Positions 10,297 through 20,327 of a DNA stretch of 28,206 bases are shown piece after piece. The notes below the pieces were generated by a model. That model had not been told where the DNA came from. It saw only the letters and a program-made list of their open reading frames with translations, and searched no databases. Location of the stretch: NCBI GenBank assembly GCA_964628775.1, contig CAZVOT010000001.1, positions 1 to 28,206 on the forward strand. The letters run 5' to 3'. The DNA comes from Candidatus Woesearchaeota archaeon (GTDB lineage Archaea; Nanobdellota; Nanobdellia; CAZVOT01). Made by a program: the position numbers and the translations under genes. How positions within the stretch are numbered: the first letter of the stretch is position 1; every line of letters begins with the position of its first letter.

Positions 10297-10791
10297 TTAA
10301 TAAATTTCAGAAATCAGTTCTTTGGGCAGTATACTTGTAATTTTTGAAAGTTCTAAGAAAAGAGAAACTTCGCATGGATGGGTTAAATTGAATTCTCTTA
10401 TTGTTTCTCTCAAGGAATTTTCATTGTACTTGATAAAATGTATACTCTGTACATCAAGTTCTTTTTTCTTTTTGTCATTAAAAATTTTATTTATTTCATC
10501 TTTTGATAGATTCACTCTTATTCTTGCGTGAAGTTCCGGTTTTCTAACTTTCCAGGTTTTTGGATTCTCCCATTTATCCTGGCGCCACATAAATAATTTA
10601 TCATTTGAAAGGGCATTTACTTCAATTGAATCTATATCAAAATGTTCTTCTTCTAAAATTCCAAGTTCTTCAAAAAGTTCTCTTGACATTTCTTCAACTG
10701 GGTGAGTTCCAGCAAGTTCAATATTTCCTCCAAAAACATGATAAGCACTGGGATAGAATGGCGTGTTATTTCCTCTTTTTGAAAGAGGCAT
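10297..10791 (-). pseudogene. N-terminally truncated duplicate of the Nudix gene at 13937-14899
   Basis: 164-aa ORF nearly identical to the C-terminal half of that protein; its ATG overlaps the PMK 3' end. Confidence 0.6.
10297..10791. repeat. Direct repeat copy 1 (offset 3640 bp from copy 2)
   Basis: 10335-10746 is identical to 13975-14386 (412 bp by manual comparison); both margins are diverged but alignable. Confidence 0.95.
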
Positions 10792-11905
10792 CTTCTTTTA
10801 TTCCTTCTTTGTCAATTTCAGCAGAAATAACATAAATCCCTGATTTTCTCCATTCAGATTCTATTTTATTCTTAATTTCATCAGAAAAACAAAGAGCAAT
10901 ACCGCAATCTCCACCACCTGCTCCTGATAATTTTCCAGCTCCTTTGTTTTTATCTGCAATTTCACAGAGTAATTTTAATTTTTCAGTTTCAATTTTTATA
11001 TTTGATTTTTTTCCAAGTAAAGATAATAATTTTTCATTTTCTTTTATTAATTCTAATATTTTGTTTTCATTTTCAGTTTTTAATGAAAAGATAAGTTGTT
11101 CTGTTAAAATTTTGATTTTATTGATTATTTCAAAATATTGGGATTCTCTTTCTGATTTAAATTCTTTCATTTTTTTTATCATTTCTGATGTTGATGCAGA
11201 ACTTCCTGTAAAACCAATTGATAATTTAAGATTTTTTGGAATTGCAGCATTTTTAACATAAAAACCATTCCACTTGGAATCAACAATGTCCTTTATACTT
11301 CTTTTTTGTTCAAATTGACTTAAAAACCAGTCCTGATAAAAAGTCCTGTAAACTAAAAATCCACCGAATACAGAAGCAGCAATATCAAAGCAGGAGCCGG
11401 ATTTTCCCTGAGCAAAATAATGAGCTATTGCTGAAAGTTTATATATCAGTTCTTTTGATTCTTTTTTTTCAATATCAAAATTATTGAATTTCAATATAGA
11501 TGAGATTATTGAAACGACAGATGCAGCAGAAGAACCAAAGCCGATTTTTTTTGATTCACTGTTGATATTTATTCTTGTTTCTTTTCCAGATGTTTCGAGT
11601 TTAAAGGGGTTTATTTTTTTGAGATAGGCATAAACTGTTTCAACTGCGGAGTTTGTGAATTTCAAAATCTCTTTTTGTTTATCTGTTAACTCCTTTAAAT
11701 AAACTAATTTTCCTTCTATAATTTCAGCAGGTATATTTCTTATGTTAAAATCTAAAAGGGAGAGGTATATGTTATTATCTTTTGATTCTGAAACTGATGA
11801 ATATATTCTTTTATTTACAGCACAGACAACTGCTAAATTATCTTTTTCTAAAATACTCCACTCTCCTGAAATCATAAGTTTTCCTGGGGCTGAAACTTTT
11901 ATCAT
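10766..11905 (-). CDS. mvaK2: Phosphomevalonate kinase (ERG8-like GHMP type, Gram-positive/mvaK2 style)
   Basis: SAPGKLMISGEW, KKIGFGSSAA, HYFAQGKSGSCFDIAASVFGG, GFTGSSAST, KLSGAGGGDCGIAL. Confidence 0.88.
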   Translation of the reverse strand: MIKVSAPGKLMISGEWSILEKDNLAVVCAVNKRIYSSVSESKDNNIYLSLLDFNIRNIPAEIIEGKLVYLKELTDKQKEILKFTNSAVETVYAYLKKINPFKLETSGKETRININSESKKIGFGSSAASVVSIISSILKFNNFDIEKKESKELIYKLSAIAHYFAQGKSGSCFDIAASVFGGFLVYRTFYQDWFLSQFEQKRSIKDIVDSKWNGFYVKNAAIPKNLKLSIGFTGSSASTSEMIKKMKEFKSERESQYFEIINKIKILTEQLIFSLKTENENKILELIKENEKLLSLLGKKSNIKIETEKLKLLCEIADKNKGAGKLSGAGGGDCGIALCFSDEIKNKIESEWRKSGIYVISAEIDKEGIKEDASFKKRK

Positions 11906-11911
11906 TTTTAG

Positions 11912-12919
11912 TCAAAATAGGTGTTCTTCAGTTAAATATGCGGATTTTCCGCATTTTAATTCATAAATTTCTTTAATTCCTTTTATTTTCCTGCATTCTG
12001 AAATTATTTTTTTTGCATCTTTTTCAAGACATATAATCTTGAGCTGTGGTCCAGCATCCATTGTAAAATAACATTCAATTCCTTTCTTGTTTATTTCATC
12101 AATTTTATAAATAATCTCTTTTGTTTTGTCATTTATGTAAATAATTGGAGGATTTGTAGTCAGCATTACTGCGTGCATTTTGAGGCAGTTTTCCTGCGCT
12201 GTTTTTCCAAGAAGAGAAAAATCTTTTTCAATTATCGCTTTTCTTGTTTTCTTTAAATCATCTTCAATTGAAGAAAGCCAGGAACTTTTGTAAATAGGAC
12301 TTGTTTTTACACTCTGAGACATACCTGCTCTTGATTTTATTTTTTTTTCTTTTTTTGAAGTTACACAAGCAATTAATCTGAGTTCTTTCCAATGATTCTC
12401 ATCTCTTATTGTTTCTGCATAAGAGTCCTTTCCGTCTTTTCTTTTTCCTTTTTTCCATTCAACAAAACCGCTTGGAATTGAACGAGAAGCAGAACCAGAA
12501 CCCCTTCTTGCTAAAATTGAAAGTTCTTTTTTATCAAGTCCTAAATTTAAAGCAGAATTTACTGCAAGAGAAAGAGCTGCAAAACCTGATGCTGATGATG
12601 CAAGTCCTGCTGATGTAGGGAAGTTGTTTTCTGTTTTTATTTTGACATTTTGTTTTATTTTAAATTCTTCCCGGATTATATTTAAAAATTTTTCAATGTA
12701 TTCTTTATAATCCTCTGAATTTTTATTTAATTTGTTATTATTTAGAATAAATATATCCTCTTTATATTTATTATCAAATTCAACAGTTGTTTTAGTAGTC
12801 ATTTTATCCAGAGTCATACTTATACTGCTGTTATACGGAAGAATAAGTTTGTCATCTCTTTTTCCCCAGTATTTAACAAGAGCAATATTTGAATTTGCTG
12901 CAGCCGAGGCTTTCATCAT
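11912..12919 (-). CDS. mvaD: Diphosphomevalonate decarboxylase
   Basis: SNIALVKYWGK, LPYNSSISMTL, NNFPTSAGLASSASG, ARRGSGSASRS, SRAGM, FTMDAGP. Start probably ATG 12919 or 12916. Confidence 0.9.
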   Translation of the reverse strand: MMKASAAANSNIALVKYWGKRDDKLILPYNSSISMTLDKMTTKTTVEFDNKYKEDIFILNNNKLNKNSEDYKEYIEKFLNIIREEFKIKQNVKIKTENNFPTSAGLASSASGFAALSLAVNSALNLGLDKKELSILARRGSGSASRSIPSGFVEWKKGKRKDGKDSYAETIRDENHWKELRLIACVTSKKEKKIKSRAGMSQSVKTSPIYKSSWLSSIEDDLKKTRKAIIEKDFSLLGKTAQENCLKMHAVMLTTNPPIIYINDKTKEIIYKIDEINKKGIECYFTMDAGPQLKIICLEKDAKKIISECRKIKGIKEIYELKCGKSAYLTEEHLF

Positions 12920-12989
12920 TAACTTAATAAAAAACACATTATTAAAATTTTTGAAAAGATATTTAATTTCTTGTTTTTTATAGTTATCT

Positions 12990-13940
12990 ATGTTTGAATC
13001 AAAATCAGCGGGAAATCTTTTTCTTTTTGGGGAACATGCAGTTGTTTATGGAAAACCTGCGGTAATAACCTCTGTTGATTTAAGAACAAAATGTTCTCTT
13101 GAAAAAAAAGACAGCGGGATTTCAATAAACTCAAAGGAACTTGGAACTGCAGAGGAAATAAATGGAGAAAAAACAGGAAATCCTGATTTATTCATTCTTC
13201 TTGATTTTTGCAGGGAACTTCTTTTTAAGTTTGAAATGACTTCTGGACTTAATATTTATATTGAATCAGAAATACCTGTTGCAAGCGGTATGAGTTCTTC
13301 AACAGCAGTTTTATGTTCAATTTTATCTGCTTTTTCAAAAGAATTTAACCTTAGTATAGAAAAAAAAGATTATTACAATTTAATCATAGAATCACAGAAA
13401 AAAATTCACGGAGGCAAGGCATCAGGTTCAGAAATAATAAGCAGTTCAATCGGCGGTTTTAATTATTTGTCTTTTAAAGATGGAAAATTAAATATTGTTG
13501 AACTTGATAAACTGCCTATTGATGTTGTAATAGGTGATACAGGAATTTCTATGAAAACTTCAACAACTGTTGGAGGATATATACCGAATTTAATGAAAGA
13601 AAAACCAGAGTTTGTTAAAAATGCTTTTGATAGAATTGAGGAAATATGCAACAGAGGAGTAGAGGCGATAAAAAGAAAAGATTTTGCTTTAATCGGACAA
13701 TTAATAAATGAAAACCAGAATGTTCTTTTCTCACTTGGACTTTCGCATCCAAAAATAGACTTGGCTGTAAAAAATGCTCTTTTGGCTGGTGCTTACGGCG
13801 CCAAACTCTCCGGCAAAGGACAAGGAGGGATTATGTTTGCAATAACAGATAAAGAACACAAAGAAAAAGTTGCTTTGGCAATAGAAGATTCAGGACTTAA
13901 AGTAATAAAAACAAAAATCGGAACAGAAGGATTAATCTAA
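12990..13940 (+). CDS. mvk: Mevalonate kinase-like GHMP kinase (atypical motifs)
   Basis: LFGEHAVVYGKPA, SEIPVASGMSSS, HGGKASG, GAKLSGKGQGG; next to mvaD and mvaK2. Confidence 0.75.
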   Translation: MFESKSAGNLFLFGEHAVVYGKPAVITSVDLRTKCSLEKKDSGISINSKELGTAEEINGEKTGNPDLFILLDFCRELLFKFEMTSGLNIYIESEIPVASGMSSSTAVLCSILSAFSKEFNLSIEKKDYYNLIIESQKKIHGGKASGSEIISSSIGGFNYLSFKDGKLNIVELDKLPIDVVIGDTGISMKTSTTVGGYIPNLMKEKPEFVKNAFDRIEEICNRGVEAIKRKDFALIGQLINENQNVLFSLGLSHPKIDLAVKNALLAGAYGAKLSGKGQGGIMFAITDKEHKEKVALAIEDSGLKVIKTKIGTEGLI

Positions 13941-14431
13941 TAAATTTCAGAAAGAAGTTCTTCTGGTTTTATATTTGTAATTTTTGAAAGTTCTAAGAAA
14001 AGAGAAACTTCGCATGGATGGGTTAAATTGAATTCTCTTATTGTTTCTCTCAAGGAATTTTCATTGTACTTGATAAAATGTATACTCTGTACATCAAGTT
14101 CTTTTTTCTTTTTGTCATTAAAAATTTTATTTATTTCATCTTTTGATAGATTCACTCTTATTCTTGCGTGAAGTTCCGGTTTTCTAACTTTCCAGGTTTT
14201 TGGATTCTCCCATTTATCCTGGCGCCACATAAATAATTTATCATTTGAAAGGGCATTTACTTCAATTGAATCTATATCAAAATGTTCTTCTTCTAAAATT
14301 CCAAGTTCTTCAAAAAGTTCTCTTGACATTTCTTCAACTGGGTGAGTTCCAGCAAGTTCAATATTTCCTCCAAAAACATGATAAGCTCCTGGGTAGAATG
14401 GGGTGTTATTTCCTCTTTTTGAAAGAGTTAT
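13937..14431. repeat. Direct repeat copy 2
   Basis: See copy 1; lies within the 3' half of the full-length Nudix gene. Confidence 0.95.
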
Positions 14432-14899
14432 ATAATCATCGCTTGAAATTACAAGAACATCAACTGCCAAGGGAGCTGATGGAACTTTATTGTCTTTGAA
14501 ATAATAAAAATAAGCAGGATTTTTTACTGCAAGAACTTCCGGGAAAGTTATTTGTGATACATCTAAGGTAAGTTCACTTTTTTTGAACATTTTTAGAGCA
14601 GTATAATTATAATTTTCTAATCTTGAAACAAAGCCCGGCCATATAAGCAGGTTTTCTTTATGATAAAGAGAATTATATTCTGTTTTTTTGTTGTATTTTT
14701 TATAAGGCTCAAATCTAAATTCTTCTCTTGGTGAATTTTGTTTTGTTATCCTTTCTTCTAAAATCATGTTCCAATTAGCATTTATTAAAAATTCAAGTCC
14801 TTCGGGCTTTTCTTTTGGTTCTACTACATTAACTTTGATATTATCTTTATATAAAGAAAAAATTTCATTTATTTCCCAGTCTTTTGTTGTGCAAATCAT
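13937..14899 (-). CDS. Nudix hydrolase, NUDT22-like architecture
   Basis: APLAVDVLVISSDDYITLSKRG...YPGAYHVFGGNIE...RELFEELGI (variant Nudix box) after an N-terminal domain. Likely start ATG 14899. Confidence 0.7.
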   Translation of the reverse strand: MICTTKDWEINEIFSLYKDNIKVNVVEPKEKPEGLEFLINANWNMILEERITKQNSPREEFRFEPYKKYNKKTEYNSLYHKENLLIWPGFVSRLENYNYTALKMFKKSELTLDVSQITFPEVLAVKNPAYFYYFKDNKVPSAPLAVDVLVISSDDYITLSKRGNNTPFYPGAYHVFGGNIELAGTHPVEEMSRELFEELGILEEEHFDIDSIEVNALSNDKLFMWRQDKWENPKTWKVRKPELHARIRVNLSKDEINKIFNDKKKKELDVQSIHFIKYNENSLRETIREFNLTHPCEVSLFLELSKITNIKPEELLSEIY

Positions 14900-14973
14900 A
14901 GTTTTAAAGTAAATTAAAAGATTTTTAAAACTACCTAAAAACAATAGTTTCTTTAATATGATTAGTGAAAAAA

Positions 14974-15003: not shown

Positions 15004-15972
15004 ATGAAAATAACTGTTCTTGGTGCTGGTAATTGGGGGACTGCTTTTGCCAGAATTCTCTCTAAAAACAAACACGAGATTGTTATATGGACAATTGAAG
15101 AGGATGTTTTTCGCGATATAAATGAAAATCATGTTAATACAAAATATCTAAAAGGTGTAAATCTGCCAGAATCAATAAGAGCAGAAAGGGATTTAGGCAG
15201 TGCTGTTTCAAAAGCAGATTTTATTGTTATAGCTGTTCCTTCGCACATAGTTTCTATTGTTTCCAAACAGCTTGCAGAATTTTACAAAAATCAGCCCATT
15301 ATTGACCTTGCCAAAGGATTTGAACCGAATATCTTTCTCAGGATGAGCGAAACAATAAAAAAAGAGATTCCAAGTGCTGATGTTATCGCTCTTTCAGGCC
15401 CATCTATTGCAAATGAAGTTGCTTTAGATATTCCAACATCAGTTTCAATTGCTGGAGATAATAAAGAAACCTTAAAATTAGCAAAAGAGATTCTTGAATC
15501 AGAGAATTTCCATGTTTTTCCGAATAATGATATTATTGGCGTTGAAATGGGCGGAATTTTGAAGAATGTTATTGCTATTGCAGGAGGCATGTCTGACGGA
15601 CTTGGATTTGGCTGTAACACCAAGTCTGCCATTATCACAAATGGACTTAAAGAAATGAAAAGAATTGGTGTTTCTCTTGGAGCAAAAGAAGAAACTTTTT
15701 TTGAACTTTCCGGGATAGGAGATTTGATTGTAACTTCTATTTCAGAGGATGGAAGAAACAGGACTCTTGGCGAGAAACTAGGCAGGGGTATGACTCTTGA
15801 AGAGATAAAAAAAGAATCGCTTCAGGTTATGGAAGGAGTCAATGCCTGTTCATTGGCAATAAAGATTGCAGATGAGAAGAAAATTTCTGTTCCTATTACA
15901 AGGGAAATCTATGATGTTCTTTTTAATAATAAAAAGCCAATATCTGCTGTTAGAAAAATTCTTTCTTTATGA
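15004..15972 (+). CDS. gpsA: NAD(P)H-dependent glycerol-3-phosphate dehydrogenase (bacterial type)
   Basis: VLGAGNWGTA, NTKYL, AVPSH, LAKG.E, LSGPS.A.EV, DIIGVEMGGILKNVIAIAGG, GIGDLIVT, RNRTLG, EGV. Confidence 0.93.
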   Translation: MKITVLGAGNWGTAFARILSKNKHEIVIWTIEEDVFRDINENHVNTKYLKGVNLPESIRAERDLGSAVSKADFIVIAVPSHIVSIVSKQLAEFYKNQPIIDLAKGFEPNIFLRMSETIKKEIPSADVIALSGPSIANEVALDIPTSVSIAGDNKETLKLAKEILESENFHVFPNNDIIGVEMGGILKNVIAIAGGMSDGLGFGCNTKSAIITNGLKEMKRIGVSLGAKEETFFELSGIGDLIVTSISEDGRNRTLGEKLGRGMTLEEIKKESLQVMEGVNACSLAIKIADEKKISVPITREIYDVLFNNKKPISAVRKILSL

Positions 15973-16661: not shown

Positions 16662-19600
16662 TTAAGTTTTATTCAGTTCGTCAATTATTCTTTTTTTTTC
16701 TTCTTCATTCAAGTCTGTTTTTTCCAGAAGAATTTTTCTTTCAATTGAAGAAACAAGGACTCTTGTTTTATTTACAACATCAGGATTGACACTCATACTG
16801 TCTATGCCTTCTTTCACTAAAAATTCACAGAAATCCGGATAGACACTGGGAGCCTGCCCGCATATTGAAACCTTGACTCCATTTTCGTGTGCTCTTCTGA
16901 TTAAATTTACTATTGCTCTTTTTACTGCTTCATCTCTTTCATCAAAGTAGCCCATTTTTGCAAGAAGCGCTGAATCTCTGTCACATCCAAGAATTAACTG
17001 GGTCAAGTCATTGCTGCCAATTGAAAAACCGTCGCAGAGTTTTGAAAATTCATTTGCCATAAAGATAATGCTCGGCACTTCTGCCATAAGCCACAGTTCA
17101 AATGAATCCTCCCCTCTTTTTAGTCCTTCGCTTTCCAAGATTGAGATTATTCTTTTTACTTCCCATAAATTCCTGACAAATGGAAGCATTACCTTTACAT
17201 TTTTATGTCCGTAGATATCTCTTACTTTTTTTATTGCTCTGCATTCTAGTCTAAAAGAGGATTCAAATTCTGGAGAAATGTATCTTGAGCATCCTCTCCA
17301 GCCAATCATCGGGTTTTCTTCTTTTGGTTCAAATTTTTCTCCGCCTTTTAAACTTCTATATTCATTTGTCTTGAAATCAGATAATCTAACTACAACCAGC
17401 TTTCCGTCCATTGCTTTTGCTGTTTTTGCAATTCCTTCTGCTAATTTGTCTATATATTCACTGCCTCTTCCTTGTTCTAACATTGCATTTGGATGTTCTG
17501 CTATGTAAGATGCTATAATAAATTCTATTCTCATAAGTCCTATTCCGTCGCACCATAATTTGGAATATTCATCTGCTTTTTCTGGAACTCCTAGATTCAT
17601 GTATATTTTTGTTGATGTAATTGGTTTTGATGTTTCTCCATTTAGGAATTCTTCTTTTTTCTCTTGTTTTATTTCAATCTTTCCGCCGTAGACTATTCCT
17701 CTTACTGCATCAAGAGTTACTTCCTGATTATGTTTTATTACTTTTGTTGCAGTTGAGGTTCCCACTATGCATGGGATTCCAAGTTCTCTAGATACAATCG
17801 CTGCATGGCAGTTTGAAACAAGAACAGGAGAGTATTTTTTTGTAAATACAACATAGTTATGCTGTATTTCATTGTCTGCTTCAACTTCAATATTGTAAAC
17901 ATCAATAACTCCAAGTTCTTTTACTTTTTTTGTTCTGTACATTCTTAAATCAGAATTAATAACTTTTGAAAGTTCTTCCTTTGTTTTTCCATCAAGCATA
18001 GGAAGAATCTTCTGCTTTATTTTTTCAGAATCAATCAGTAGATTGCTGTTTACATAGGGTTTTACTTTTCCTTTGTAATTTACAGATTCAATTATATCTC
18101 TTAGAACCTGTTTTGCTGAAAATAATTTTGTTCCATTGATTTTTTTATGTGTTTCTCCTTTTATTCTTTTTGAATAAAATAGAATATCCTCTATCTTTTC
18201 CATTATCTGGATATGATGTATATTCCTATTTACAGTAACTTCCGGAACAATGCCTAATTTTAAGCAGGCAAGAACAACTCCTTGGATTACTTTTTCTTTC
18301 TGTATATAGATATGCAGTCTATTTTCATAAAATGAGCCGTCGCCGTCAATAAGTCCTGCAAGGAAATTTAATGCTGAGCTTTCTGATATTTCAAGCAGCC
18401 ATGAATCAAGATTCTCATAAATTTCCATAATTTTTTGTGCAGGAACAAGTTTAAAACAGACAAAATCTGTTGCACATCCACAGATTGTTTTTCCTCTTAA
18501 AGTAGATGAACTTGATTTATCTCTTTCAAAAGTCATTTCTTCACTGAATAAATCGCTGTAATATTCTTTTACTATTTTGATAAACTCTGCTTTTTGTATA
18601 TCCTGTTTTTGAGTAAAAGTTACTCTTCCTATTCTGGCATTTCCTGATTTATATTTATCTACCCTTATGTTCCCATCAGATAAAAGAGCACCCATTAGAT
18701 ATCCTAATTTATCATTTTTAATGCTTGCTAAATTTATTGGAAGTTTTTCAACAATACAGAGATGTTCATTATCTTCAAGAATACTTTTTATTTCTTTTTT
18801 TATCAATTCTCTTCCTTTGAATGTAAATACTTTGTGATTCTCTGTTATATCTAAAGTATTATGTTCTATTCTATTTGATTGAGAAGTAGATATACTAATT
18901 GCACTGCTTTTTCTTTTAAATGAATTTATGATTCTTTTCCAGACAGGTTTTAAATTTTTAGAATCAAATGAGAAGATAAATAACTCCTCATTAGAATTTA
19001 TTTTTTCATAAACTTCGCTTATTTTTAAAAATCCTTTGTTTGTCAGGATATTTGTATGTTCTCCAAAACAAGTCATTCCACCTTCATCAGTTATTATTCC
19101 TGATGCTTTTAGCATTATTGGAACCCAGTCAGGGTCAGTCATTCTTGTAACTAAAATATCCCCTTTTTCTATTTTATCAGCTTGTTCAGGAGATAAAATC
19201 AATGATGCTTTTCCTGATGCAATTCCTGGACTTGCTCCAAGTCCTTTTATTATAATATTGCCTTCAGGTTCTTTTCTTTCCTCTGTTTCTTCTTTTCCAA
19301 AGAAAGTAATAGGTCTTGACTGGACAATATATAGATGTCCTTCTTCAATGCACCATTCAATATCCTGCGGAACTTTGTAATAATTTTCTATTTTTTTTAC
19401 TATTTTTGCAAGTTCTATTATCTGGGAATCATCAAGAACCTGGGTTTTCTTTTTGTTTTCAGGAAGTTCTACTTTTATCATACCCATATCATCAGGATTT
19501 CTTATATACTTCCACTGCTGTTCGCCGATGCTTTTATTTTTTATTTCAAATGTTTCTTTATTAACAATATAATTGTTTGGAGTTATTTCTCCTCCTACAA

Positions 19601-20327
19601 CTGCATCACCCTGCCCCCAGCCAGCTTCAATTATTATTTCGTTTTTATTTCCTGTTGAAGGATGAATTGAAAATGCTGTTCCAGCTTTTTCAGAGTCAAT
19701 CTGTTTCTGGACAATTGCACATAAAAGAACTTTTTCATGTTCAAATCCGTTTTTTTCCCTGTAGAATATTGCTCTTGCAGTATAAAGTGAAGCCCAGCAT
19801 TCTTTTATTGCTCTGATTAATTGTTCTTCTCCTTTTACAAATAATATTGTTGCCTGCTGTCCTGCAAAACTAGCATTAGGCAAATCTTCTGCTGTTGCTG
19901 AAGAACGTACTACCACATAAGGAATGTCTCTTCCTGCTGAAATTAATTTCATTGCATTATCGCTTAGATTTTCGTATCTCTCACTTCCAGCTTTCATTTT
20001 TTTGTATGCTTCCAATATTTTTGATAAAATATGTTCTGGAATACTTTTTGACATTACTATTTCTCTGATTTTTTCTGATGCCAACTGGATTGCTTTTGTG
20101 TCATCAACATCAATTGATTTTAATATTGAGAAAATGCTTTCTTTAATTCCTGTTTCTTCCATAAACTCCTTGAAAATGTAAGCATTTATTGCAAATCCCA
20201 TGGGTACAGGAAAACCTGCTTTTGTCATTTCACCTAAGTTTGCAGCTTTTCCGCCGACAATTGGAATATCCTCTTTTCCAATTTCCTTAAACCATAAGAT
20301 AGATTTTTCTTTTTTGTCAATTTCCAT
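16662..20327 (-). CDS. ppsA: Phosphoenolpyruvate synthase (PEP synthetase), intein-containing; about 801 aa after splicing
   Basis: VGGKAANLGEM, VRSSATAEDLPNASFAGQ, DIEW, VQSRPIT, GGMT-CHAAIVSRELG (phospho-His), GLMRIEF, PMIGWRG, SIGSNDLTQ, ICGQAPS. Confidence 0.95.
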   Translation of the reverse strand: MEIDKKEKSILWFKEIGKEDIPIVGGKAANLGEMTKAGFPVPMGFAINAYIFKEFMEETGIKESIFSILKSIDVDDTKAIQLASEKIREIVMSKSIPEHILSKILEAYKKMKAGSERYENLSDNAMKLISAGRDIPYVVVRSSATAEDLPNASFAGQQATILFVKGEEQLIRAIKECWASLYTARAIFYREKNGFEHEKVLLCAIVQKQIDSEKAGTAFSIHPSTGNKNEIIIEAGWGQGDAVVGGEITPNNYIVNKETFEIKNKSIGEQQWKYIRNPDDMGMIKVELPENKKKTQVLDDSQIIELAKIVKKIENYYKVPQDIEWCIEEGHLYIVQSRPITFFGKEETEERKEPEGNIIIKGLGASPGIASGKASLILSPEQADKIEKGDILVTRMTDPDWVPIMLKASGIITDEGGMTCFGEHTNILTNKGFLKISEVYEKINSNEELFIFSFDSKNLKPVWKRIINSFKRKSSAISISTSQSNRIEHNTLDITENHKVFTFKGRELIKKEIKSILEDNEHLCIVEKLPINLASIKNDKLGYLMGALLSDGNIRVDKYKSGNARIGRVTFTQKQDIQKAEFIKIVKEYYSDLFSEEMTFERDKSSSSTLRGKTICGCATDFVCFKLVPAQKIMEIYENLDSWLLEISESSALNFLAGLIDGDGSFYENRLHIYIQKEKVIQGVVLACLKLGIVPEVTVNRNIHHIQIMEKIEDILFYSKRIKGETHKKINGTKLFSAKQVLRDIIESVNYKGKVKPYVNSNLLIDSEKIKQKILPMLDGKTKEELSKVINSDLRMYRTKKVKELGVIDVYNIEVEADNEIQHNYVVFTKKYSPVLVSNCHAAIVSRELGIPCIVGTSTATKVIKHNQEVTLDAVRGIVYGGKIEIKQEKKEEFLNGETSKPITSTKIYMNLGVPEKADEYSKLWCDGIGLMRIEFIIASYIAEHPNAMLEQGRGSEYIDKLAEGIAKTAKAMDGKLVVVRLSDFKTNEYRSLKGGEKFEPKEENPMIGWRGCSRYISPEFESSFRLECRAIKKVRDIYGHKNVKVMLPFVRNLWEVKRIISILESEGLKRGEDSFELWLMAEVPSIIFMANEFSKLCDGFSIGSNDLTQLILGCDRDSALLAKMGYFDERDEAVKRAIVNLIRRAHENGVKVSICGQAPSVYPDFCEFLVKEGIDSMSVNPDVVNKTRVLVSSIERKILLEKTDLNEEEKKRIIDELNKT
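17811..19070 (-). mobile_element. Intein with LAGLIDADG homing endonuclease (420 aa, residues 420-839 of PpsA)
   Basis: Interrupts GGMT|CHAA. Starts Cys (CFGEHT), block B TENHKV, LAGLIDADG-type blocks YLMGALLSDG and FLAGLIDGDG, block F VYNIEV..HNYV, ends Ser-Asn before Cys+1. Confidence 0.93.

Follow-up and report, generated by a model that had tools for sequence, protein, structure and literature searches.

A classical-type lower mevalonate pathway gene cluster in a repeat-bracketed cassette of a DPANN archaeon

Three intact ORFs at positions 10766-13940 of the window (the whole 28,206-nt stretch of DNA that was analysed, from a contig of a Candidatus Woesearchaeota archaeon) encode phosphomevalonate kinase (PMK), diphosphomevalonate decarboxylase (MVD, or DMD) and, divergently from these, mevalonate kinase (MVK). 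They probably represent a working classical lower mevalonate (MVA) pathway, whose lineage is common to CPR bacteria and DPANN archaea and which feeds ether lipid synthesis and is carried in a cassette bracketed by a direct repeat. The host is a DPANN archaeon with a genome of 1.22 Mb and 30% GC, from a class that includes the Woesearchaeota, and its assembly consists of 224 contigs (N50 9.7 kb) with an estimated contamination of 5.4%. Classical PMK and MVD have already been published for DPANN archaea (2018, 2024), and the present locus is a new and well-documented example of a 'eukaryote-type' lower pathway circulating between CPR bacteria and DPANN archaea, with the assets of independently confirmed junctions on its left side and of one gene of the three, MVK, being clearly of CPR type. 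The features of the region are as follows.

10298..10787, minus strand: left repeat copy, a truncated duplicate of the NUDT22-like gene that corresponds to its C-terminal half (ORF 10297-10791, 164 aa)
10766..11905, minus strand: PMK, GHMP family, mvaK2/Gram-positive type, 379 aa; TIGR01220 'Pmev_kin_Gr_pos', 253 bits (cut-off 165.7)
11912..12937, minus strand: MVD/DMD, 341-aa ORF, with a likely start at 12919 (335 aa); TIGR01240, 327 bits (cut-off 171)
12938..12989, no strand: AT-rich spacer separating MVD-PMK from the divergent MVK, read from the sequence; 52 bp long, increasing to 70 bp if MVD starts at 12919
12990..13940, plus strand: MVK, CPR-type clade, 316 aa; TIGR00549, 175.7 bits (cut-off 163)
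13937..14944, minus strand: full-length gene for a NUDT22-like two-domain Nudix hydrolase, its 3' 490 bp (13938-14427) forming the right repeat copy
15004..15972, plus strand: GpsA, bacterial-type NAD(P)H glycerol-3-phosphate dehydrogenase, neighbouring the cluster; NF000942, 366 bits (cut-off 257)

Gene organization and enzyme identity

MVD and PMK are spaced by 6 bp and lie on the opposite strand to MVK, across a gap of 52-70 bp. The three are the sole GHMP-family genes genome-wide, and no second MVK was found in the genome. All exceed their curated cut-offs and are located on an archaeal contig, which bears out the claim of an earlier, sequence-only reading that a DPANN archaeon carries a classical lower MVA pathway. 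PMK was fitted best by the NCBIfam 'Gram-positive' model, against 109.5 bits with the Sulfolobus-type Arch_PMK model NF040957 (cut-off 500) and 99.9 bits with ERG8; its best match among solved structures is the Lin0012 PMK of Listeria innocua (3K17, 168 bits), and the motifs APGKL, GFGSSAA and SGAGGGDCG are all present. A single-query search of genome contigs with PMK returned just two distant MVK-like loci of Nitrosopumilus, and the back-translated patterns were of low complexity. MVK keeps the catalytic-Asp motif IGDTG. Its unusual GHMP motifs raised the question of a defective or neofunctionalised enzyme, an idea that was rejected, as the motifs are common to the whole CPR/DPANN MVK clade.

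The mvaK1-mvaD-mvaK2 operon of Gram-positive bacteria (Staphylococcus, Streptococcus, Listeria, Enterococcus) includes the same families and catalytic residues, yet identity is 31% between PMK and the Listeria enzyme and 43% between MVD and the S. epidermidis enzyme, and these are not proximate relatives. An initial description of the enzymes as 'Firmicutes-like' had to be given up: they are members of a CPR/DPANN clade, showing 44-63% identity to CPR/DPANN sequences versus 31-43% to those of Listeria and Staphylococcus.

Relatives and evolutionary origin

CPR bacteria as well as DPANN archaea, Micrarchaeota among them, have been described as carrying a eukaryote-type MVA pathway; PMK and DMD are on record for Asgard archaea too, in addition to Micrarchaeota and other DPANN. 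In the published trees, sequences of DPANN archaea interleave with those of CPR and other bacteria, from which HGT was inferred (Hoshino & Gaucher 2018, PMC6107057; Zhu et al. 2024, PMC11052028). The GHMP trio of those cases, MVK, PMK and DMD, is the same as here; the present case differs in its host, which is of the Nanoarchaeota/Woesearchaeota class, in its CPR-type MVK, in that HMG-CoA reductase (HMGR) and thiolase were undetected, and in a 490-bp target duplication around the cassette. The view that the Sulfolobales are the known archaeal exception is, given those publications, out of date, and within the class of the present host MVD adjoins a PMK-like gene in at least 18 of 401 genomes (about 4.5%), the pairs being spread over at least five families. 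The Sulfolobales, for which a classical MVA pathway was described by Nishimura et al. 2013 (as cited in PMC6107057), resemble the present archaeon in combining PMK and DMD with isopentenyl phosphate kinase (IPK), but their PMK is of another type, and the window MVD is closer to the staphylococcal enzyme (S. epidermidis MDD, 3QT5, 260 bits) than to that of S. solfataricus (5GMD, 194 bits).

A link to CPR bacteria had been suspected from the sequence, and it stands: the clade to which MVK belongs is of CPR type, and Nealsonbacteria and Patescibacteria are among the nearest matches of MVD and PMK. Five related contigs (L050, L051, L052, L094 and L097) were verified as bacterial, and three of these (L051, L052 and L094) carry tight MVK>MVD>PMK operons. 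MVK is 54-62% identical to the MVKs on verified CPR contigs, versus 27-33% to those of its own class, and in the MVK tree its clade, which has support of 98/92 and 99/96, contains five verified CPR members. A position nested within CPR diversity is favoured (96/66), although the alternative was not rejected by the AU test (p = 0.087). Identities to CPR operon members are 57-62% for MVD and 43-48% for PMK. The CPR (Parcubacteria/Patescibacteria) operon contigs JAZDJT010000027.1, Ga0210017_1000838 and k141_66377 have the same gene content as the window, MVKs, MVDs and PMKs that are 54-59%, 57-58% and 43-44% identical, respectively, and the same MVK clade signature (GN..., SGKGQGG); their operons are co-linear and reside on bacterial contigs with RecG, sigma-70, MurA and MreB, whereas in the window MVK is inverted. 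The enzymes belong to a lineage common to CPR bacteria and DPANN archaea by way of inter-domain gene exchange, the direction and number of transfers being a matter of inference. The codon composition is fully host-like (GC3 of 0.17-0.19 for the trio, matching host genes, versus 35-40% GC in CPR operons), and therefore any transfer would be old.

Two histories could account for the mixed signal, and the stronger, a serious candidate if somewhat short of probable, is that DPANN archaea, or this class, have long had the MVD-PMK pair, by vertical descent or ancient transfer within DPANN, and that MVK alone came from CPR, as a replacement or as an acquisition. In the concatenated MVD+PMK tree the pair branches deep in a mixed CPR/DPANN clade, the window and one Woesearchaeota genome (G170) branching first and other genomes of the class further out; this agrees with an old pair, as do the presence of such pairs in several class families and an MVK that lies on the opposite strand and is so distant from the MVKs of its class. 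However, the basal placement has support of just 83/84 on a long, compositionally odd branch, and could be long-branch attraction, because PMK and MVD both sit on long branches with compositional bias. FastTree trees of PMK alone and of MVD alone gave no resolved position for the window. A trait seen in so small a fraction of the sampled class genomes would also require very many losses under vertical descent, and there is no relative of the same order for a comparison of synteny.

A less favoured history, possible but on the unlikely side, is transfer of the whole trio from a Parcubacteria-type CPR donor with a co-linear MVK>MVD>PMK operon, MVK being inverted later. The occurrence of the same trio as an operon on verified CPR contigs, the placement of MVK within the CPR-operon clade and the identities of MVD and PMK to operon members all speak for it. 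Against it, the gene order and the strand of MVK differ, and the MVD+PMK tree places the window outside the CPR-trio clade (support 100/100); forcing the window and the CPR trio to be monophyletic cost 16.4 lnL (AU p = 0.046), a borderline result for a group that was named after the first tree was seen.

A woesearchaeotal case of a different kind was reported by Castelle et al. 2021 (PMC8204110), in which bacterial MEP genes are co-located with a bacterial G3P dehydrogenase and UbiA. There, as here, a bacterial-type route to isoprenoid precursors adjoins gpsA in a Woesearchaeota-group genome, but that route is MEP and the present one the classical lower MVA pathway.

Predicted pathway and supply of mevalonate

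Judged from sequence, MVK would phosphorylate mevalonate, PMK would make mevalonate 5-diphosphate and MVD would decarboxylate this to IPP, which would be isomerised by a type-1 IDI encoded elsewhere and would feed a cluster for GGPP synthase, GGGP synthase, DGGGP synthase and CDP-archaeol synthase; the pathway would thus supply the ether lipids of a DPANN archaeon. A genome search, as the sequence-only reading had advised, recovered IDI-1 (contig C27, 141.6 bits, cut-off 105.8), an intact IPK (contig C2, 256.7 bits, cut-off 120) and, elsewhere in the genome, a lipid cluster with GGPPS, UbiA, GGGPS (246 bits, cut-off 161.6) and a CarS-like gene, giving a series of enzymes that begins with GGPP synthase and ends with CDP-archaeol synthase. 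IPK and IDI-1 being on other contigs, the trio does lie away from the rps2-mvk-ipk-idi context, as had been proposed. CPR genomes likewise keep IPK and IDI-1. A search for G1P dehydrogenase (PF13685) found none in the genome.

Thiolase, HMGS, HMGR and IDI had all been noted as missing from the window; for HMGR and thiolase this extends to the whole assembly, but IDI-1 and an HMGS-like gene exist elsewhere in the genome. No PF00368 candidate for HMGR was found in the 224 contigs, and tblastn with six HMGRs from relatives gave a best E of only 0.72. The acetoacetyl-CoA thiolase model PF00108 matched only the HMGS-like gene, and tblastn with six thiolase queries from relatives gave nothing at E <= 1. 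HMGR is present in all 17 of the other MVD/PMK-bearing genomes of the class, and HMGR and thiolase together in nearly all. The HMGS-like ORF (contig C7, 554 aa) exceeds the Pfam cut-offs but none of the NCBIfam cut-offs for HMGS. Its identity to the HMGS of relatives is just 24-31%, and it is extended by a Zn-ribbon at the C-terminus. Since HMGR and thiolase are absent from the assembly, mevalonate scavenging stays possible but, with the genome in 224 contigs, unproven. A stronger version, which we regard as unlikely, is that the archaeon is a natural mevalonate auxotroph that has lost HMGR and thiolase, retains just a CPR/DPANN-type lower pathway and lipid-assembly genes, and builds its lipids from mevalonate, or a phosphorylated derivative, supplied by a host or community, the lower pathway being a 3.6-kb cassette that can be excised by recombination and is mobile within the population. 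The lack of detectable HMGR and thiolase alongside a lower pathway and a full set of lipid-assembly genes goes beyond the published pattern, and would mark out mevalonate as a metabolite that a DPANN symbiont may obtain from its host.

The presence of IPK with no isopentenyl phosphate source found in the genome leaves room for some decarboxylation of mevalonate phosphate. The archaeal trans-anhydromevalonate phosphate route has no support here, as a search for its UbiD-family anhydromevalonate phosphate decarboxylase (PF01977) gave no match, either in this genome or in 17 of the class. It is nevertheless very improbable that the route is of the haloarchaeal type, with 'MVD' acting as a phosphomevalonate decarboxylase together with this IPK, and with the PMK-like gene doing something else. 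MVD scores 171.7 bits with the phosphomevalonate decarboxylase model NF040704 (cut-off 475) and is well above the cut-off of the DMD model, and the adjacent gene exceeds the PMK equivalog cut-off. All 13 positions that were checked against S. epidermidis MDD are kept in MVD (Y18, K21, A105, S106, S107, S139, G140, S141, R144, S192, R193, M196 and D283), so that, at the level of sequence, it retains every checked substrate and catalytic residue of the DMD type. Among these are the DMD-type lysine of YWGK and the Ser-Arg pair, which in the structures from S. epidermidis make contact with the diphosphate. IPK is also retained by organisms that use the classical route, for instance Sulfolobus and plants. 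The sequence-only reading had named a monophosphate-preferring decarboxylase, with IPK encoded elsewhere, as the finding that would overturn a classical pathway; the IPK is indeed there, but the residues of MVD and its adjoining PMK point to a diphosphate substrate.

The contig and the direct repeat

The cluster is on an archaeal contig and is neither chimera nor contamination, because the flanking genes are archaeal, independent contigs reproduce the arrangement, and GC3 is host-like. Genes on both sides of the trio include Alba, Rad3/XPD, an archaeal/eukaryotic-type uL16, DUF63, a Nob1-like PIN protein and an intein-bearing PEP synthase, and the order HtpX, truncated Nudix-like copy, PMK and MVD is reproduced at 99.5-99.7% identity by two independent JGI metagenome contigs. 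That a CPR trio was mis-assembled or mis-binned into an archaeal scaffold, the repeat being an assembler loop, is hardly credible. There are CPR bacteria among the closest relatives, assemblers mishandle structures such as a perfect 412-bp repeat, and the assembly has some estimated contamination; but two independent assemblies of other JGI samples span HtpX/left repeat/PMK and left repeat/PMK/MVD, the composition is not that of CPR operons, and archaeal genes flank the trio on one contig.

The repeat is formed by the 3' half of the NUDT22-like gene, present twice in direct orientation with a 3.6-kb cassette in between. Its identical core spans 412 bp (10335-10746), and all 13 mismatches lie in the two margins. 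The last seven codons of PMK fall within the left copy, the junction of which with PMK was confirmed by the independent contigs L098 and L099, and at the other end the stop of the full-length NUDT22-like gene overlaps that of MVK. The protein of the left copy is 96% identical to residues 172-335 of the full-length product. Such a footprint would be expected if a circle of gene fragment plus trio had integrated by homologous recombination, or from a segmental duplication, and since direct repeats bracket the trio it could presumably be looped out again. The 490-bp duplication scar may therefore indicate how such cassettes are inserted and lost, which goes beyond the published pattern. A search for an empty site by way of the Nudix-like protein found none among 40 relatives; there is no relative of the same order, and the family is nearly absent from the class. 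A metagenome scan with the left flank found no empty-site allele and one more 'filled' contig. Genes of 163-164 aa located 3' of PMK in CPR operons were considered as counterparts of the truncated 164-aa copy, but show no similarity to it, and the match in size is coincidental.

The NUDT22-like gene was also considered as a cryptic IDI and rejected, given the bona fide IDI-1 elsewhere in the genome and a predicted fold that is NUDT22-like. The protein falls below the threshold of the Pfam NUDIX model (17 bits), and its AlphaFold model (pLDDT 93, pTM 0.91) has human NUDT22 as its top Foldseek match (E = 3e-13), with TM values of 0.65-0.71 and both domains matched.

The mevalonate genes and their host contig

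The sequence-only reading had located three genes of a lower mevalonate pathway at 10766-13940 in a DPANN-like archaeon. Intact ORFs for all three occupy exactly this interval:

10766-11905, minus strand: phosphomevalonate kinase (PMK); TIGR01220 ('Gram-positive' phosphomevalonate kinase equivalog, NCBIfam), 253 bits, cut-off 165.7
11912-12937, minus strand: diphosphomevalonate decarboxylase (MVD); TIGR01240 (diphosphomevalonate decarboxylase equivalog), 327 bits, cut-off 171
12990-13940, plus strand: mevalonate kinase (MVK); TIGR00549 (mevalonate kinase equivalog), 175.7 bits, cut-off 163

MVD and PMK are 6 bp apart, and MVK diverges from them across an AT-rich spacer of 52 bp, which lengthens to 70 bp with the MVD start used in public gene calls (12919). 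When all ORFs of the genome were searched by HMM, no GHMP-family gene besides these three turned up, so this MVK is the only one in the genome. The archaeal assignment also stands, since annotated archaeal genes lie on both sides of the trio and the 400 genomes drawn from the phylum all belong to the same class (none to the same order). The contig encodes a Rad3/XPD helicase (TIGR00604, 255 bits), a ribosomal protein uL16 of archaeal/eukaryotic type (NF003239, 179 bits, cut-off 91), Alba, DUF63, a Nob1-like PIN protein, RNase Z and an intein-bearing PEP synthase (16662-20327, minus strand; NF005057, 987 bits). The genome comprises 1.22 Mb in 224 contigs (N50 9.7 kb, 30% GC) with completeness estimated at 100% and contamination at 5.4%. 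That the trio stems from an assembly chimera can be all but dismissed. The PEP synthase intein, of about 400 aa and with a LAGLIDADG homing endonuclease, separates the mobile from the PEP-binding domain. Directly after the window comes a scaffold gap of 100 Ns (28207-28306 of contig C1), beyond which the contig runs on for another 9.2 kb.

Predicted enzyme activities

The MVD aligns with the S. epidermidis enzyme (3QT5) at 260 bits. When mapped onto that protein, all 13 positions checked are conserved in the window and in 119 homologues: Tyr18 and Lys21 (YWGK motif), Ala105, Ser106, Ser107, Ser139, Gly140, Ser141, Arg144, Ser192, Arg193, Met196 and the catalytic Asp283. We take these to be the substrate and catalytic residues of the S. 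epidermidis structures. The PMK retains motifs I-III, and its closest solved relative is the Listeria PMK. A route through phosphomevalonate decarboxylase and isopentenyl phosphate kinase (IPK) in place of the classical one is unlikely, being contradicted by the MVD residues, by the adjoining PMK and by the model scores (the phosphomevalonate decarboxylase model NF040704 stays at 171.7 bits, its cut-off being 475). Most likely, judging from these sequence features, the classical order is followed, from mevalonate to the 5-phosphate, the 5-diphosphate and IPP. Phosphomevalonate decarboxylase-like enzymes are marked by loss of a conserved lysine (Zhu et al. 2024, PMC11052028), for which the text of that paper names no position; it is probably the YWGK lysine, which the window MVD keeps.

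The MVK differs from that of Methanosarcina mazei in all three GHMP motifs (GN for GK, SGMSSS for SGLGSS and SGKGQGG for TGAGGGG). These changes are common to its whole clade and are therefore a family trait, not the mark of a defective MVK. In the MVK alignment, the motif-I lysine is missing across the whole CPR/DPANN lineage (GN or GS for GK), motif III reads SGKGQGG in the CPR-type clade and SGGGWGG in a large DPANN clade, and in the latter Asn replaces the catalytic Asp (IGNTK). This suggests that the catalytic lysine or base has been relocated in these kinases.

The remainder of the pathway

A search of the whole genome, as the sequence-only reading had proposed, recovered IPK, a type-1 IDI, GGPP synthase and a UbiA-type enzyme, and no HMG-CoA reductase (HMGR). 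The features found are:

Contig C2: IPK; NF040647, 256.7 bits, cut-off 120
Contig C27: type-1 IDI, apart from other pathway genes; TIGR02150, 141.6 bits, cut-off 105.8
Contig C11: cluster of GGPP synthase, UbiA-type DGGGP synthase, GGGP synthase (TIGR01769, 246 bits, cut-off 161.6) and a CDP-archaeol-synthase-like gene
Contig C7, 2262-3926: divergent HMG-CoA synthase (HMGS)-like gene, 554 aa, with an internal insertion and a C-terminal Zn-ribbon extension (CxxC...CP..H)
Window, 15004-15972, plus strand: GpsA, bacterial-type sn-glycerol-3-phosphate dehydrogenase, two genes from MVK

The four genes noted as lacking from the window thus divide: the type-1 IDI and an HMGS-like gene lie elsewhere in the genome, whereas neither HMGR nor acetoacetyl-CoA thiolase was found in the 224-contig assembly, in agreement with tblastn searches using six HMGRs and six thiolases of relatives. 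The other MVD/PMK-bearing genomes of the class carry HMGR (17/17) and thiolase (16/17), usually in one cluster with other pathway genes. As the two tend to sit side by side, one gap in the assembly could conceal them together, and the upper pathway may be either truly lost or unassembled; the proposed scavenging of mevalonate survives the genome-wide test, in a fragmented MAG that cannot prove absence.

The HMGS-like protein shares 24-31% identity with the HMGS of relatives, which share 53% among themselves, and its Zn-ribbon extension may represent a fused DUF35-like scaffold. Its gene adjoins three glycosyltransferase genes and no mevalonate genes. Type-2 IDI and UbiD-family decarboxylase were not found in the assembly, nor, genome-wide, was G1P dehydrogenase (PF13685), despite the genes for GGGP synthase, DGGGP synthase and a CarS-like protein. 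In Woesearchaeota, MEP genes of bacterial type have been described at the same locus as UbiA and a bacterial G3P dehydrogenase (Castelle et al. 2021, PMC8204110).

Precedents, distribution and origin

The earlier statement that Sulfolobales are the known exception among archaea is outdated. MVK, PMK and MVD were reported from a few Micrarchaeota and ascribed to horizontal transfer, and CPR bacteria were found to have the bacterial/eukaryotic pathway in full, together with IPK and IDI-1 (Hoshino & Gaucher 2018, PMC6107057). The classic pathway has since been stated for Sulfolobales 'and some DPANN archaea', with PMK and MVD in several DPANN MAGs and in Asgard archaea, phylogenetically intertwined with bacteria including CPR (Zhu et al. 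2024, PMC11052028). Because these cases precede it, the window trio is a further example of a published pathway type.

Within the class the trait is patchy and not unique to the window genome. TIGR01220 scores above cut-off in six of 401 genomes, and HMMs built from homologues reveal an MVD beside a PMK, or a gene resembling one, in 17 of the 401, spread over five families including that of the window genome; these pairs are of at least three sequence types. An eighteenth genome has PMK on an 8-kb contig, with no MVD seen on that contig. In one family (f9; genomes G304, G070, G120, G200 and G273, loci L064-L068) the neighbour of MVD scores nearly equally as MVK and PMK (about 160-190 versus 130-142 bits), with an additional, ordinary MVK some 5 kb off; the neighbour seems to represent a PMK lineage that is intermediate or divergent.

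The closest PMK homologues are 45-51% identical, those named being Aenigmatarchaeota, Diapherotrites or 'archaeon', and one homologue cluster includes a Nealsonbacteria PMK encoded on a contig of 689 kb. For MVD (57-63%) they are a mixture of Nealsonbacteria, Patescibacteria, Aenigmatarchaeota, Woesearchaeota and Nanoarchaeota. MVK homologues at 54-62% are, where named, Patescibacteria/Parcubacteria only; DPANN MVKs reach at most 51%, and those of the same class 27-33%. Domains of homologue contigs were assigned from neighbouring genes. Five (L050, L051, L052, L094, L097) are bacterial, jointly carrying S20p, Pol III delta, Fpg, RecG, sigma-70, MurA, MreB, ClpP and D-Ala-D-Ala carboxypeptidase; three of these (L051, L052, L094) have a co-linear MVK-MVD-PMK operon. 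L048 has an S12-S7 pair of bacterial size, and L049 is archaeal (exosome genes). L095 (GCA_053530815.1, JAIYSC010000067.1) is probably archaeal and, if so, would add a second archaeon to the CPR-type MVK clade; it carries two TrmB regulators, a GlyRS 53% identical to that of the window genome and a CPR-type MVK with no adjoining MVD or PMK.

The proposal of horizontal acquisition, possibly shared with CPR bacteria, was examined on two trees. In the MVK tree (IQ-TREE, PMSF) the window and five verified CPR sequences form one clade (98/92 and 99/96), the window being nested within it at 96/66, although a topology with the window outside the other 19 members passes the AU test (p = 0.087); by sequence, the MVK is of CPR type. 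The concatenated MVD+PMK tree (38 taxa, 706 columns) places the window outside the CPR-operon clade: it branches first in a CPR+DPANN clade (83/84) and the Woesearchaeota genome G170 next (94/96), with CPR and Aenigmatarchaeota subclades inside. Forcing it into the CPR-operon clade costs 16.4 lnL (AU p = 0.046), a borderline value for a group named after the first tree was seen. Since the window MVD and PMK branches are long and compositionally odd, this deep placement may be partly artefactual. We conclude that the trio belongs to a lineage shared by CPR and DPANN; the three genes may have arrived en bloc, or MVK alone may have been swapped in later. The trio has the GC3 of the host genes (0.17-0.19) and CPR operons are 35-40% GC, so any transfer would be old.

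A repeat bracketing the trio

Direct repeats at 10298-10787 and 13938-14427 bracket the trio, with an identical core of 412 bp and 13 mismatches, all in the two margins. They derive from a NUDT22-like gene:

10297-10791, minus strand: truncated duplicate, 164 aa, 96% identical, between HtpX and PMK (left copy)
13937-14944, minus strand: full gene, 335 aa, its 3' half being the right copy and its stop overlapping that of MVK

The end of the left copy supplies the final seven codons of PMK. The left junction recurs with an identical breakpoint on two independent JGI contigs, one spanning HtpX to PMK and the other the repeat core to MVD; in the latter the margin has the variants of the right copy, which makes these differences polymorphic. 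A circular molecule of gene fragment plus trio could have integrated into the resident gene by a single crossover, giving an A-trio-A layout, and the trio would come out again if the two copies recombined. No empty-site allele was found among relatives' genomes and metagenome contigs.

The structure model of the full gene (pLDDT 93) has a two-domain fold resembling human NUDT22 (TM 0.65-0.71, E = 3e-13), and a role as IDI was rejected on this fold. The truncated copy keeps the Nudix box and lacks the N-terminal domain. With 54 representatives in a set of 1.84 billion proteins, this two-domain family is small; its members are at most 31% identical to the window protein, bar a fragment of itself, and share invariant R162, G178, E198 and D269.
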